A stretch of DNA of 64,000 nt, from the NCBI GenBank assembly GCA_045105615.1, contig JBGCDS010000030.1, positions 16,498 through 80,497 on the forward strand, read 5' to 3'. The stretch comes from Gammaproteobacteria bacterium. GTDB lineage: Bacteria > Pseudomonadota > Gammaproteobacteria > UBA4575. Positions 23,116 through 44,763 of the stretch are shown piece by piece (the stretch's first letter is position 1; the number at the start of each line of letters is the position of its first letter). A model generated the notes under the pieces. The model searched no databases. It had not been told where the DNA came from and worked only from the letters and a program-made list of their open reading frames with translations. The position numbers were made by a program, and so were the translations under genes.

Positions 23116-24819
23116 CTAAAAGAGAAAATATCTCTGTGCCAGCGCGACAACTTCCGCAGGTTCACAAGTAAGTAACTTACCATCGGCACGTACTTCGTAT
23201 GTTTGTGGGTCTACTTCAACGTTGGGCTGATAGCTGTTATTGATCATGTCGCATTTCCTAATTTTTCTAGTATTGTTTACAGCTATACATTGTTTGTGCA
23301 GAGAAAGTTGTTTTGCAATATCATTATCAATTGCTGCCTGTGATACAAAAGTATAGCTAGTTTTATAGTTCGCACTAGCATAAGCGCCAAACATGTAGCG
23401 ATAGTGGACTGGTTGTGGCGTAGGAATAGATGCATTTGGGTCACCCATGGGTGCTGCTGCAATAAAGCCTCCTTTAATGATTAGCGCAGGTTTAACGCCA
23501 AAAAATGCAGGTTTCCATAGTACTAAGTCTGCAAGTTTACCAACTTCGATCGAACCGACCTCATGTGAGATTCCATGGGTTATTGCCGGATTAATTGTGT
23601 ATTTTGCAATGTAGCGTTTTGCACGATTGTTATCATTCTCAGAACTATCTTCTTCTAGTGGCCCGCGTTGTTTTTTCATCTTGTCAGCAGTTTGCCAGGT
23701 GCGACAAACAACCTCACCTACACGGCCCATCGCTTGAGAATCTGATGCAATCATGCTGAATGCGCCTAAATCATGAAATATATCTTCTGCAGCAATAGTT
23801 TCTTTGCGGATTCTTGATTCTGCAAATGCGACATCCTCAGGAATTTTTGTATCAAGATGATGACATACCATCAACATATCCAAATGTTCATCAATTGTGT
23901 TAACGGTATAGGGGCGAGTCGGGTTAGTGCTTGAAGGTAATACATTAGCTTCTCCGCACGCACGAATAATATCTGGCGCATGACCGCCACCAGCACCTTC
24001 AGTGTGATATGTATGGATGGCACGTCCTTTAAATGCAGCAATAGTATCTTCGACAAATCCAGATTCATTGAGTGTATCGGTATGAATTGCCACTTGAATG
24101 TCATACTTTTCTGCTACGTTTAGACAGTTGTCGATTGAAGCGGGCGTAGTTCCCCAATCTTCGTGCAACTTGAGTCCCATTGCACCTGCGATAACCTGTT
24201 CTTCTAATGCTGCAGGTAAACTCGCATTACCTTTGCCTAGGAAGCCTAGATTCATCGGAAAAGCATCGGCCGCTTCCAGCATTTTGTGTATATTCCACGG
24301 TCCTGGAGTGCAGGTGGTTGCATTGGTTCCTGTTGCGGGACCTGTGCCTCCACCTAACATGGTTGTTACGCCAGACATTAATGCTTCTTCAATTTGTTGC
24401 GGACAAATAAAGTGTATGTGAGCATCAATACCACCTGCAGTAATGATTTGACCTTCACCTGCAATGGCTTCTGTACCTGGGCCTATCGCAATATTTACAT
24501 TGGGTTGTATGTCAGGGTTGCCGGCTTTACCGATGCCGAAAATTCTTCCGTCTTTAATTCCAATGTCTGCCTTAACAATGCCCCAATGATCTAATATTAA
24601 TGCATTAGTGATGACAGTATCGACAACGTCTTTCGAACATAACTGGCTTTGACCCATGCCGTCACGAATTACTTTGCCGCCACCAAATTTTACTTCTTCA
24701 CCATAGGTTGTATGATCTTTTTCAACTTCTATAAATAGATCGGTATCACCTAAGCGGACTTTATCGCCAATGGTTGGGCCGAACATTTCTGCATAGGCTT
24801 GTCTGCTAATTTTGGCCAT
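23116..24819 (-). CDS. ureC: Urease alpha subunit UreC
   Basis: 567 aa. [31 protein letters not shown]. Confidence 0.98.
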
Positions 24820-40605: not shown

Positions 40606-40720
40606 ATGCCTGCTGTATAGTCTCTGTATACCTGATATTAATCTTAAGCTTGTCCCTCAGGCGCTCAAGTGATTGAATGTGGTCCCGAAGTTACTTCTAG
40701 ATATAACAGGTCTAATTCTT

Positions 40721-41092
40721 ATGAAATCGTTGTTGTTAGTTGCACATGGCAGTCGCCGTGCTGAATCAAATGCTGAAATTGCCGTTGTTGCTAAGTCTTT
40801 GAGTGAGAGAGTTAAAGGAAATTATGCTCGAACAGGCTATGCATTTTTAGAACTGGCCGAACCATCTATCCCAGAGGGTATTGATACACTAGTTAAAAAT
40901 GGTGCGACTGAAGTGACGATACTTCCATACTTTCTGTCCGCAGGGCGTCACGTACATGAAGATGTGCCTGAAATCGTTAATCTGAAACAAGAAGAAATGA
41001 AGGATGTAAAGATACATATCGCACCTTATATTGGCGAAGCAGTAGAAATGATAGATGTGTTAGTGGCTATCTCTGAGAGTGGCAAAAAATAG
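40721..41092 (+). CDS. cbiX: Small CbiX/SirB-type sirohydrochlorin chelatase
   Basis: LLLVAHGSRRAESN and ILPYFLSAGRHVHEDVPE motifs. ATG 40721 (MKSLLLVAHG) is preferred over the TTG at 40673. Confidence 0.8.
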   Translation: MKSLLLVAHGSRRAESNAEIAVVAKSLSERVKGNYARTGYAFLELAEPSIPEGIDTLVKNGATEVTILPYFLSAGRHVHEDVPEIVNLKQEEMKDVKIHIAPYIGEAVEMIDVLVAISESGKK

Positions 41093-41097
41093 CAATT

Positions 41098-41904
41098 TTA
41101 TTTGCTTGTCAGGCTATTCTGCTCAGTGATAATAAGCGATACCTGACTACGGTTTAGCCAGTCAGATAGGTAAGTTACTGCTACTTTACTGACTTCTTCT
41201 TCAGGATGATATGAAAGCAGATTTTCGCATACATCACTTAATGATCCTCCTTTTAAGAAAATGTTTATTGATTCTAGTTCACTTATTTCAAGTGATCTAA
41301 ACTCAGTGACTCTTTGCGCATTTCTCCAAATAACCCAGGTGGAGTCATCGCATTGTTGCACGTCAGGTGGAGATTGTTGTTGTTTCAGTGCTTGCCAGAT
41401 TTCAACACAGTTATAATTGTTTTGAAATAATTGCAAACTGGGATGAAAACGGATTTTAATGTTGGGCCAATCTTCAATCGATAATTTACTTAGATCAAAC
41501 ATGCTTGCGGCTGTAGAGTCGTTGGCATCGAATGCAAATAATAGTGTTTGCTCAAATCGTGCAAGTTCTGCAATCACTGGATATTGATTAAAGGGCGGAT
41601 TGTTTTTTAAATAATCAGGTACATTGCTGCAAAATTCGCGTAATGAAGTGTGATTTGAAGGGTAGGCGTCAATGTATCCTTCTACTAACTGATCAAATAA
41701 TTCGTCACCAAGATAATAGCTTAAGATTTGATGATCAGTATCGATTACTCCACGCAAGCGAACCGTGTAAGCATTGCTATAAATATTAAGCCGCGTCTGT
41801 TTGTCGATCGGGCCGCCATCTTTAATGTAGTCATCAACTTGTTGCTTTTTATGAACTAGATAGTTGATTAAATCTGACTGTAAGGCTCGTAAGTCTGGCA
41901 TCAA
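41098..41904 (-). CDS. DUF2063 family protein (BufC/HvfC-type partner of MNIO enzymes)
   Basis: 268 aa. RLNIYSNAYTVRL...YLGDELFDQLVEGYIDAYPS matches the DUF2063 N-terminal pattern as I recall it. Starts 12 nt after the upstream DUF692 gene. Confidence 0.75.
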   Translation of the reverse strand: MMPDLRALQSDLINYLVHKKQQVDDYIKDGGPIDKQTRLNIYSNAYTVRLRGVIDTDHQILSYYLGDELFDQLVEGYIDAYPSNHTSLREFCSNVPDYLKNNPPFNQYPVIAELARFEQTLLFAFDANDSTAASMFDLSKLSIEDWPNIKIRFHPSLQLFQNNYNCVEIWQALKQQQSPPDVQQCDDSTWVIWRNAQRVTEFRSLEISELESINIFLKGGSLSDVCENLLSYHPEEEVSKVAVTYLSDWLNRSQVSLIITEQNSLTSK

Positions 41905-41916
41905 GGCTTTTTAGTT

Positions 41917-42756
41917 TCAAACAGAGGTTAACGCTAAGGTTTGTTGGGCAATATCACGTGCATACTTCATTTCTGCATGCAGATCTTCAAATGGCGGAAT
42001 ATTGTCATCTCTTTCAATTAAAGTGCTAACAAAGCCAAATTTCTTAACAGCATCAGCATATAAGTCCCATACTGCAGGAGGGACATCATGATCATGTGTA
42101 TCAATTACATAATCGCCGTAATCACTATGACCGGCTAAATGAAATTGTTGGATATGTTCGGGCTTGATCGCATGTAAAAATGTTTGTGCAGAAAAACCAT
42201 GGTTTCGTGAACTGACATAAATATTGTTAATGTCTAACAATATTTTGCAGCCGGCACGATCTGCAATGGTATTAATGAAATCCCATTCTTCCATGTCTGA
42301 TTGATTGTAAGTGAGATAGCTAGAAACATTTTCTAGGACTAATGTTCTACCTAATATTTCTTGTACCTGTTGAACGCGGTCAACAATGTGTGTAATCACT
42401 TCGTCGTTGTATGGAACCGGTAATAAATCATGACTGTTTAGACCTTCTGCGCCTGTCCAGCATAAATGATCAGATACCCATTCGGGTTGTACTTCGGAGG
42501 ATAACGTTTTTAGTTTTTTTAAATAATCCATATTTAATGGATCAGTGCTGGCGATCGACAACGATACACCATGCATCACAATAGGGTAATTTTCTCTTAC
42601 TGAATGGAGGAAGTACTTAGGCTTGCCTCCTGCAACCATAAAGTTTTCTGAAATGACTTCGAACCAGTCAACGTCAGGTCGATTATCGACAACATGTTGA
42701 TAGTGGTCAGTGCGAAGTCCTACGCCAAATCCAAGAAAATTATTATTCATGATCAT
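41917..42756 (-). CDS. DUF692 / MNIO (multinuclear non-heme iron-dependent oxidase) family enzyme (BufB/HvfB/MbnB-like)
   Basis: 279 aa. N-terminal FLGFGVGLRTDHY, then WFEVISENF, HGVSLSI and LIERD, as in the UPF0276/DUF692 TIM-barrel proteins. Confidence 0.85.
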   Translation of the reverse strand: MIMNNNFLGFGVGLRTDHYQHVVDNRPDVDWFEVISENFMVAGGKPKYFLHSVRENYPIVMHGVSLSIASTDPLNMDYLKKLKTLSSEVQPEWVSDHLCWTGAEGLNSHDLLPVPYNDEVITHIVDRVQQVQEILGRTLVLENVSSYLTYNQSDMEEWDFINTIADRAGCKILLDINNIYVSSRNHGFSAQTFLHAIKPEHIQQFHLAGHSDYGDYVIDTHDHDVPPAVWDLYADAVKKFGFVSTLIERDDNIPPFEDLHAEMKYARDIAQQTLALTSV

Positions 42757-42815
42757 TCTTTTGAAACACGGGAAGCGACTAGCACTCCCCGTGATATCGG
42801 AGTATTGGTGATAAA

Positions 42816-43286
42816 TTAAGCGCCTACTTTGCCGCCAACATCACCACAAGATTTCTCTGTGGTAGCAACAAAACCCTGGCCTTTGCATGATGCTTGACCA
42901 GCGCATGAGTTTTCAGCAGTACCGCAATCATTGTGGCCTTTACAAGTGTTTATGCCATAGCAGTGGATTAAATCAGTTTTTGCAATTTCACCAACCCAGT
43001 CATCTTTAACTGTGCCGCCAATATCGCCACATGCTTTGCTTGGTGCAGCAACAAAGCCGCTTCCTTTACAAGATGCTTGTCCGCCACATGAATTGTCAGC
43101 AGTGCCACAATCGTTATGACCTTTGCATACGTTGACGCCATAGCAATGAACTAAATCTGTTGTATTAGCTGAAGCTGAAGCAACTTCAGCAGTTTCAGAT
43201 GTTGTTTGACAACCGCTGATGATTCCAGCTGCTGCTAGTGCTAATGCAACGCCAGTCATTTTTGGAGCAAGTTTTAAGTTTTCCAT
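42816..43286 (-). CDS. Secreted 12-Cys RiPP precursor-like lipoprotein (bufferin/DUF2282-like, tandem 6-Cys modules)
   Basis: 156 aa. Signal peptide with lipobox IISGC (Cys26). Two 51-aa repeats (residues 43-93 and 104-154) share 39 of 51 identical residues. Each has the pattern HCYG.N.CKGHNDCGTA.NSC.GQASCKG.GFVA....CGD.GG.V. AAGGAA RBS. First gene of the operon. Confidence 0.75.
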   Translation of the reverse strand: MENLKLAPKMTGVALALAAAGIISGCQTTSETAEVASASANTTDLVHCYGVNVCKGHNDCGTADNSCGGQASCKGSGFVAAPSKACGDIGGTVKDDWVGEIAKTDLIHCYGINTCKGHNDCGTAENSCAGQASCKGQGFVATTEKSCGDVGGKVGA

Positions 43287-43432
43287 GATTGATTCCTTAT
43301 GTTAAATCTCTATAAAATATGAAGTGAGTATAAGTAGGGTAACTATTTGAAAGCAGCATTTTTTAGGCTGTATCTTGGTGTTACTAGATACAAGACCTTA
43401 GTAATGTGGCGTTAATTACAAAATAATTTAAT

Positions 43433-44134
43433 TTATTTTAATAATTCTTTAGAGGTGATGGGGTGGTAAGGAGTATTCCGTGTTTTATCATGGGTATGCA
43501 TGCGATATTCAACAAAATCACTGCATTTATGGAAGTGTAAGAATGGATTGCCACTGATTTGTTCGCTCAGATGTGAGGTCGATTGATTGGCATAATTATG
43601 ACCAGGATGAATGACGGTGTCAGGATCAAGATTGCTTTTCATCTTTTTTAATGTGGAAAACATTTGCTCAGGGTCGCCGCCCTGTAAGTCGCATCGACCG
43701 CATCCGAATACAAATAATGTATCACCAGTAATGATATCATTGTCGAGTAAATAGCATGCTGATCCAGGAGTATGTCCAGGAGTATGCAAGACAGATATTT
43801 CTGTATCGCCAATATTAAGTGTATCGCCACCGTAATGTAGCGATGGCTTACTTAAATTCTCATCCCAAAAATCTGCTTCTTCTTTTAGTAAATGTAACTG
43901 TGGGTCCGAGTGGTTGAGGATCTCCTCTACACCGTTGATATGATCGTGGTGACTATGGGTGAGTAACACATCAGTAATAATGATGCCTTTTGACTGTGCC
44001 TGTTGAATGATTTTACAAACATCCCAAGCCGGATCAACAACAGCCGCCTGTTTGGTCCTAATATCAGTAATTAAATAGACGAAATTTTCCATTGGTCCTA
44101 GTTCCAAGGAGTTAATTTCATATGTCTTATTCAT
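43433..44134 (-). CDS. MBL-fold metallohydrolase (glyoxalase II / YcbL / persulfide dioxygenase-like)
   Basis: THSHHDHINGV metal motif and GDTLFVFGCGRCDLQGGD. ATG 44134 (MNKTYEI, GGAG upstream) is preferred over the track start 44320, which would overlap the divergent mug gene. Confidence 0.8.
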   Translation of the reverse strand: MNKTYEINSLELGPMENFVYLITDIRTKQAAVVDPAWDVCKIIQQAQSKGIIITDVLLTHSHHDHINGVEEILNHSDPQLHLLKEEADFWDENLSKPSLHYGGDTLNIGDTEISVLHTPGHTPGSACYLLDNDIITGDTLFVFGCGRCDLQGGDPEQMFSTLKKMKSNLDPDTVIHPGHNYANQSTSHLSEQISGNPFLHFHKCSDFVEYRMHTHDKTRNTPYHPITSKELLK

Positions 44135-44220
44135 AGCATTGCTCCAATAGGTCGACATGTAAAATGTATCATGGTCTATGGGTATATAATGTAAAAGATA
44201 CTGATTTAAAATACAAAGAA

Positions 44221-44763
44221 ATGGATGACGCAAGTAATAATGAAATTTCTCTGCCAGACTATATTGATCATGGCTTGAAAATTTTATCGGTAGGCTTGAA
44301 TCCATCAATGCCATCAGCACAGTTAGGTTTTTACTTTGCTAATCCTCGCAATCGATTTTGGAAAGCATTCAATCAAGCCGGCGTGATTGGTGTGGAAGTG
44401 ACGCCAACTAAGAATATTCATCAACAGTTACTAGAAAAATATGGTATTGGTTTCACTGATGTGGCTAAACGCGCAAGCTCGATGGGGCATGAGTTGCGAG
44501 CGGCCGATTTTAAGAGAGATGCTCCTGTGCTACGTGAGAAAATAGAGCGTTATAGGCCTGAGTTAATATGGTTTCACGGTAAAGTGGCGATGAGCAAGTT
44601 TATGTATTATTCCTATGGCGTGCGGCAAGATTGGCAATGGGGGTTTAATAGTATTGATGCTATGAGGTCAAGGGTGTTTATCAGTCCAAATCCAAGTCCT
44701 GCGAATGCGGCTTATAGCCTTGATGTGCTAGTGGGTTATTATAAAAAACTTAAATCCAGATGA
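44221..44763 (+). CDS. mug: G:T/U mismatch-specific uracil-DNA glycosylase (Mug family)
   Basis: ILSVGLNPS, ANPRNRFW and SPNPSPANA motifs. ATG 44221 is preferred over 44164. Confidence 0.8.
   Translation: MDDASNNEISLPDYIDHGLKILSVGLNPSMPSAQLGFYFANPRNRFWKAFNQAGVIGVEVTPTKNIHQQLLEKYGIGFTDVAKRASSMGHELRAADFKRDAPVLREKIERYRPELIWFHGKVAMSKFMYYSYGVRQDWQWGFNSIDAMRSRVFISPNPSPANAAYSLDVLVGYYKKLKSR

Follow-up and report, generated by a model that had tools for sequence, protein, structure and literature searches.

A two-domain BufA2-family bufferin precursor with a predicted lipoprotein signal peptide in a candidate three-gene operon of an uncultured marine gammaproteobacterium

Gene Content of the Locus

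The window, that is, the whole stretch of 64,000 nucleotides that was analyzed, carries at 42816..43286 on the reverse strand an open reading frame (bufA2) for a 156-aa bufferin precursor of the BufA2 or BUF_6/12Cys family in its two-domain form. The translation was searched against NCBIfam, and a match to NF050166 (BufA2) was obtained in two stretches with 138.8 bits against a cut-off of 60 (E 5e-41); NCBI gives this model the title 'BufA2 family periplasmic bufferin-type metallophore'. A Pfam scan of the precursor returned no family at E <= 0.01. The start codon is an ATG, a Shine-Dalgarno sequence AAGGA was read from the sequence at 43294..43298 on the reverse strand, 7 nt 5′ of this ATG, and an N-terminus of the form MENxKxxPK is common to the window protein and its nearest homologues. 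The identical protein was found on three metagenome contigs, each of which had been assembled independently. At the level of sequence, the predicted gene product was confirmed as a BufA2-family bufferin precursor with two 6-Cys domains and a lipoprotein-type signal peptide.

The original prediction had measured the precursor against classical DUF2282 bufferins, with a single core behind a type I signal peptide; this is a sister family, and the right comparator is BufA2 or BUF_6/12Cys. Membership of DUF2282 (PF10048, BufA1) was rejected, as no PF10048 match was found and each domain has six Cys and not four. The oxazolin or EGKCG-repeat precursor class (HvfA, NedA, MmrA) was likewise set aside, the window precursor sequence being without EGKCG. 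The positions that had been given for the two modules (residues 43-93 and 104-154) and for the lipobox Cys (Cys26) mapped exactly onto the gene.

Directly downstream of bufA2 and on the same strand lie bufB and bufC, each present in one copy at the locus. The bufB gene (41917..42756, reverse strand) encodes an MNIO-family bufferin maturase of 279 aa with the motif ERDD at residues 248-251; it matched PF05114 with 369 bits and the MNIO_BufB model NF050167 with 378.7 bits against a cut-off of 310, whereas the 268 bits that it obtained with the HvfB model fell below the cut-off of 360. The bufC gene (41098..41904, reverse strand) encodes the DUF2063 partner of 267-268 aa (PF09836, 57.9 bits against a cut-off of 27.2), and its start is probably the ATG one codon past the TTG. 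When the window was scanned for a further bufferin module or MNIO besides bufA2 and bufB, none was found. The earlier expectation that one MNIO would have to process two cores on one substrate agrees with this gene content, a single bufB and a single bufC being present at the locus and no other MNIO in the window.

The genes bufA2, bufB, and bufC were collinear in every related locus long enough to show all three. An MBL-fold hydrolase, UDG, VanZ, DsbB, CbiX, PilZ, and MsrB were tried as further cluster members and rejected on account of being conserved only in the three closest relatives; the recurrence of the MBL, UDG, DsbB, CbiX, PilZ, and MsrB neighbours in these three alone reflects synteny, not cluster membership. 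Judged from family matches and gene order, the locus is best explained as a bufferin operon of three genes that belongs to an uncultured marine gammaproteobacterium. Neither a copper-related gene nor an ECF sigma/anti-sigma or SigF/NrsF pair was found beside the locus, so that it is family membership only that links the operon to copper. When transcripts of the organism were looked for, the only runs found were DNA metagenomes, labelled as plant and marine metagenomes.

Two Six-Cysteine Modules Under Equal Constraint

Module 1 comprises residues 43-93 (43008..43160, reverse strand) with Cys 48, 54, 60, 67, 73, and 86, and module 2 comprises residues 104-154 (42825..42977, reverse strand) with Cys 109, 115, 121, 128, 134, and 147; together with Cys26, these are all the Cys residues of BufA2. 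The modules are joined by the linker KDDWVGEIAK (residues 94-103; 42978..43007, reverse strand), in which D95, W97, and G99 are nearly invariant. In BLASTP the two modules aligned without gaps, with 39 of 51 residues identical and 44 of 51 similar (E = 2e-30), and the spacing C-x5-C-x5-C-x6-C-x5-C-x12-C was found twice in the protein, once per module. At the DNA level, 113 of 153 nt are common to both, and the codon differences comprise 17 synonymous and 12 non-synonymous ones (dN 0.15, dS 1.8). Such a low DNA identity at these rates points to an old duplication held by selection; as read from the two coding sequences, the module repeat is an old, selectively maintained duplication and neither a recent event nor an assembly artefact.

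All 12 module Cys and many of the motif residues were invariant among 70 diverse homologues, and the dN/dS ratio against a 96%-identical orthologue was about 0.02 in module 1 and in module 2. The tandem duplication of a 6-Cys module that had been proposed from the window sequence was thus borne out by the identity of the two copies, by the six Cys that each contains and by the equal constraint on both, and a degenerate second module, which would have spoken against the proposal, was not encountered in these orthologues.

Modules were also compared between proteins. The best match of module 1 was another protein's module 1 in 126 of 135 cases, and that of module 2 was a module 2 in 127 of 135, the mean identity being 0.76 for module 1 pairs and likewise 0.76 for module 2 pairs. 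This like-with-like matching indicates that one old duplication would predate the diversification of the clade of the window BufA2.

Distant two-module BufA2-like proteins of 163-196 aa were observed in other lineages (P0166, P0171, P0176, P0183, P0190, P0207, P0212, and P0269). Lipoboxes are present in most of them, for example FGC, AAC, and GGC, and the best matches of their modules are mixed, some being to module 1, some to module 2, and some to single-module proteins. On such matches, BufA2 may have acquired its two-domain form more than once.

An AlphaFold2 model of BufA2, computed from the alignment, had a mean pLDDT of 67.6, which is moderate confidence only. The pattern strand, Cys-rich loop, strand, helix, strand is present twice in this model, and a confident beta-strand at residues 92-102 passes through the inter-module linker; residues 24-37 have a pLDDT of <50 (disordered), and the Cys-rich loops are of low confidence. 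A profile search with BufA2 found nothing among PDB sequences at E <= 1, and a Foldseek search of the model against the PDB returned only meaningless matches (E >7).

Signal Peptide and Lipobox

Residues 1-25 (43212..43286, reverse strand) constitute a predicted signal peptide with K5 and K9 in the n-region, an h-region at residues 10-23, and the lipobox residues I-S-G. These are followed by Cys26 (43209..43211, reverse strand), the predicted diacylglyceryl-modified +1 Cys of the mature lipoprotein, with Gln at +2, and by a disordered tether rich in Thr, Ser, and Ala at residues 27-42 (43161..43208, reverse strand). The lipobox was judged by a rule of the PROSITE PS51257 type, in which [LVI][ASTVI][GAS]C closes an uncharged h-region and a positive n-region comes before it, and hydropathy was also used. 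The stretch ALAAAGIISGC (residues 16-26) conforms to this rule, and by the same rule-based reading BufA2 has a Sec signal peptide made up of a positive n-region, a hydrophobic core, and the lipobox.

Of the 120 best homologues, 100 have the lipobox Cys where the h-region ends, in boxes such as LAGC, IAGC, LVGC, ISGC, and MAGC, and about 60 of the 80 best species genomes have the lipobox form. The remaining 20 homologues have no Cys at this place and carry an AXA-type signal peptidase I site instead; loss of the Cys together with gain of an AXA site is the pattern expected if the Cys served for lipidation rather than belonging to the core. Among the 100 lipobox homologues, the +2 residue was A, Q, T, S, or N in 92 and Asp in one, and 15-27 residues separate the lipobox Cys from the first module Cys (CysI) in homologues. 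Against the 96%-identical orthologue (L003), 10 nucleotide changes and no amino acid change were counted in residues 1-26, and the tether after Cys26 had the highest dN among the gene segments in comparison with both L003 and L005; on these counts, the signal peptide is under purifying selection. Some orthologues carry the UniRef name 'Lipoprotein', and lipobox-bearing two-module orthologues are labelled BufA2 by NCBI. The claim that Cys26 closes a lipobox held on the PS51257-type rule and on the retention of the Cys in homologues, and the lipoprotein reading of the window BufA2 is supported by these comparisons.

In E. coli, lipoproteins with a residue other than Asp at +2 are sorted by the Lol system to the outer membrane, a rule that may not apply in this host. 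By this rule, Gln at +2 would predict a periplasm-facing anchor in the outer membrane, and the earlier description of the product as surface-immobilised goes too far.

Two-domain BufA2 proteins with a lipobox were seen in Shewanella nanhaiensis, S. corallii, and S. hanedai (L011, L016, and L054), and Cys-less, AXA-type two-domain proteins in S. decolorationis, S. hafniensis, and Shewanella HN-41 (L025, L030, and L037). The presence of both forms inside one genus suggests that membrane anchoring is evolutionarily labile. Judged from homologues, anchoring is dispensable for function, one in six of the close ones being without the lipobox Cys.

Distribution of Two-Module and Lipobox Forms

Among the 1276 matches obtained from 5.8 billion proteins, the best 120 clusters all consisted of two-module proteins of 149-165 aa, with the lipobox Cys in the 100 mentioned above. 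A pattern scan with one genome per species yielded 436 genomes with a relative; marine Gammaproteobacteria account for nearly all of the best 80, among them Shewanella, Pseudoalteromonas, Amphritea, Halioglobus, Marinicella, Motilimonas, and Endozoicomonas. The 96%-identical copy of BufA2 comes from an uncultured gammaproteobacterial MAG. Loci binned as Halobacteria archaeon, Myxococcota, and Verrucomicrobia (L069, L039, and L081, respectively) contain bufA2-bufB-bufC of the gammaproteobacterial type, with 62-64% identity to the window BufA2; mis-binning seems likelier than transfer for these loci, at least for the archaeal label.

Across the family, a lipobox was present in 10 of 13 complete two-module proteins versus 32 of 119 one-module proteins (odds ratio 9, p = 6e-4), counted in 132 representatives clustered at 50% identity with regex-based classes, some of the metagenomic proteins being fragments. 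Two published minority features, the twelve Cys and the lipobox, thus tend to co-occur, which is a small addition to the published picture.

A Hairpin Between bufA2 and bufB

The intergenic region between bufA2 and bufB contains a hairpin at 42767..42793 on the reverse strand, with an 11-bp stem (CACGGGGAGUG / CGCUUCCCGUG), a 5-nt loop, and an energy of about -18 kcal/mol. Hairpins of unrelated sequence recur at this position in 81 of 82 related loci. For segments of 45 nt, the best folding energy had a median of -19.0 kcal/mol versus -9.5 kcal/mol after shuffling, and in 71 of 81 loci it was better than in each of 10 shuffles. An 86-nt fold that includes the window hairpin was not significant as a whole (z = -1.34), so that it is the recurrence in other loci alone that argues for the hairpin. 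A T-run follows the hairpin in a few loci, for example L020, L022, L050, and L062. When positions 40900-43600 were scanned for sigma-70 promoters and intrinsic terminators, the results were no better than in shuffles and no terminator was called. The hairpin is probably an intra-operon attenuator or RNA stabiliser, raising the precursor over the enzyme transcript.

Comparison With Known MNIO-Modified Precursors

Bufferins, which were recognised only recently, defend bacteria against excess copper and are very widespread. The family was named BUF_6/12Cys in the 2024 bufferin paper, with members that have six or twelve conserved Cys. According to a 2025 survey, six Cys are present in 90% of Buf2 precursors and twelve in the rest (~10%), the twelve-Cys form corresponding to duplicated domains in an AlphaFold model, and ~16% of Buf2 precursors have lipoprotein signal peptides and might be membrane-anchored (PMC12452194). 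The two-domain and lipobox features of BufA2 are already known for the family, and they are common in marine Gammaproteobacteria.

The BufA2 of Caulobacter vibrioides (CCNA_03001) resembles the window protein in its HMM family, six-Cys domain, Sec signal, and adjacent BufB and BufC; it belongs to the second bufferin operon of that organism, which has the order bufA2-bufB-bufC and is without a DoxX gene (PMC11626156), as is the window locus. It is a single-domain protein whose signal peptide is of the signal peptidase I type, whereas the window BufA2 has two domains and a lipobox, and no SigF/NrsF regulator lies near the window locus. The central Cys of Caulobacter Buf2 show thiooxazole shifts of -4.03 Da, while CysI and CysVI are left unmodified and are likely joined by a disulfide (PMC11626156). 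The Buf2 family is also called 'Cys-Lys' captophorins, and an Asp of the corresponding MNIOs is reported to contact the substrate Lys (PMC13097082). Cys 54, 73, 115, and 134 of the window BufA2 are each followed by Lys, and the ERDD motif at residues 248-251 of BufB is consistent with the Asp of Cys-Lys-type MNIOs, as a consistency check on the motif and not from an alignment to reference enzymes.

Bufferin 1 (DUF2282) has in common with the window system the enzyme pair, the thiooxazole chemistry (predicted for the window), Sec export, and a similar predicted small fold; it differs in having four Cys and a DoxX-type bufD, whereas the window has six Cys per domain and no bufD. DybA and NedA are lipobox-bearing, MNIO-modified precursors that were triacylated in E. 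coli; the same study reports that subsets of bufferins carry lipoprotein signals, proposes copper capture at the membrane, and describes NedA as a multi-site copper binder (PMC13056109, 2026). They are like the window BufA2 in the lipoprotein signal on a precursor for an MNIO, and NedA also has an MNIO with a DUF2063-type partner. Their cores, however, are EGKCG repeats or chryseobasin-like, whereas the window BufA2 has folded 6-Cys domains and its lipidation is a prediction only. MmrA, the bulbicupramide precursor of Microbulbifer (PMC12538549), likewise comes from a marine gammaproteobacterium with one MNIO/DUF2063 pair and repeated Cys cassettes, but these are short EGKCG cassettes and not folded 6-Cys domains, and the modified peptide could stay intracellular according to its authors (PMC12538549). 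In the same work, a single MNIO/DUF2063 pair was found to install six thiooxazoles on three cassettes (PMC12538549), and the modification of many Cys on one substrate by one MNIO is established. The bufferin papers examined contain no experimental study of a two-domain or lipidated Buf2.

Proposed Function and Alternative Explanations

The reading that we favour is that of a bufA2-bufB-bufC operon whose two-domain precursor would receive thiooxazoles on both modules, be lipidated at Cys26, and bind copper, and we put its probability at roughly 0.78. The gene identities, the domain duplication, the lipobox, and the conservation of all of these make up its observed part. By analogy with Caulobacter Buf2, BufB (MNIO) and BufC (DUF2063) would turn each domain's four central Cys into 5-thiooxazoles in the cytoplasm, at up to eight sites (Cys 54, 60, 67, and 73 and Cys 115, 121, 128, and 134), and the modified precursor would then be exported by Sec. 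Lgt would add diacylglycerol to Cys26, signal peptidase II would cut between Gly25 and Cys26, and Lnt would N-acylate the new N-terminus; with Gln and not Asp at +2, the product would be carried by the Lol system to the outer membrane and sit in its inner leaflet. Disulfides would form in the periplasm within the outer Cys pairs 48-86 and 109-147, and the two folded domains, on a flexible tether of ~16 residues, would bind excess copper via the thiooxazoles. What we infer in this scheme is its chemistry and lipidation, together with the localisation of the product and the metal that it binds.

The product could instead be a two-domain bufferin that is soluble in the periplasm after cleavage by signal peptidase I, with Cys26 unlipidated and either removed with the signal peptide or kept free or disulfide-bonded. 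Such a form would be in line with the 20 of 120 closest homologues that have AXA sites and no Cys, several Shewanella proteins among them, with the small -3/-1 residues near position 25, and with the word 'periplasmic' in the NCBI family name. We nevertheless consider it unlikely, because a canonical lipobox closes the h-region and is not followed by a good AXA site in the next few residues, because 100 of 120 homologues keep the Cys at the exact position despite a highly divergent tether, and because lipidation in E. coli is documented for sister MNIO peptides that carry boxes of this kind (PMC13056109). Less likely still would be that BufB and BufC modify a single module and leave the other as an unmodified domain rich in disulfides, with a structural or docking role, for instance as a built-in recognition element. 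The two modules are equally conserved (0.76 and 0.76), with all Cys invariant and with the same HCYG..CKGHNDC..C...ASCKG.GF motifs, and an unmodified domain would not be expected to keep the Cys-Lys motifs equally; the idea draws on the leader-independent recognition via part of the core that was proposed for BufA1, and mass spectrometry of a two-module bufferin was not found in the bufferin papers examined. That BufA2 would be an ordinary, unmodified Cys-rich lipoprotein with a metal- or redox-related role, and the adjacency of the MNIO incidental, is very improbable given the equivalog-level HMM matches and an A2-B-C order that, in the related loci examined from many genera, is strictly conserved while all other neighbours vary.

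With the bufferin modified on both modules and anchored through Cys26 as the preferred reading, the window locus is a clean example of the 12-Cys lipobox form that surveys had predicted; current NCBI models would annotate it automatically, and it leaves existing knowledge unchanged. It offers a test case for whether two folded domains are fully modified by one MNIO/partner pair and whether the product is lipid-anchored. A wider proposal, which we hold to be doubtful, is that the two-domain lipid-anchored BufA2 would be a functionally distinct subclass and not a trivial variant, and that it would predominate among the bufferin-2 forms of marine Gammaproteobacteria, with an anchor in the outer membrane and perhaps with exposure at the surface or release on vesicles; the doubling of sites and the anchoring would have been co-selected, and repeated switching between anchored and soluble forms inside genera such as Shewanella would tune the site of copper trapping.

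Additional Observations in the Window

The MBL-fold gene at 43433-44320 (reverse strand) has a GTG start (295 aa) that is probably too far upstream and would overlap the UDG gene on the opposite strand; on the identical contig, the gene is called as 241 aa. For the CbiX-like gene at 40673-41092 (forward strand), which is called as 123 aa and not 139, the mechanical start is likewise probably too far upstream. An Rfam match to 5_ureB_sRNA (116 bits) was obtained at 24384-24666 on the forward strand, antisense to a 567-aa open reading frame at 23116-24819 on the reverse strand; if this frame encodes a urease subunit, the match may simply stem from conservation of the coding sequence, with no genuine sRNA behind it.
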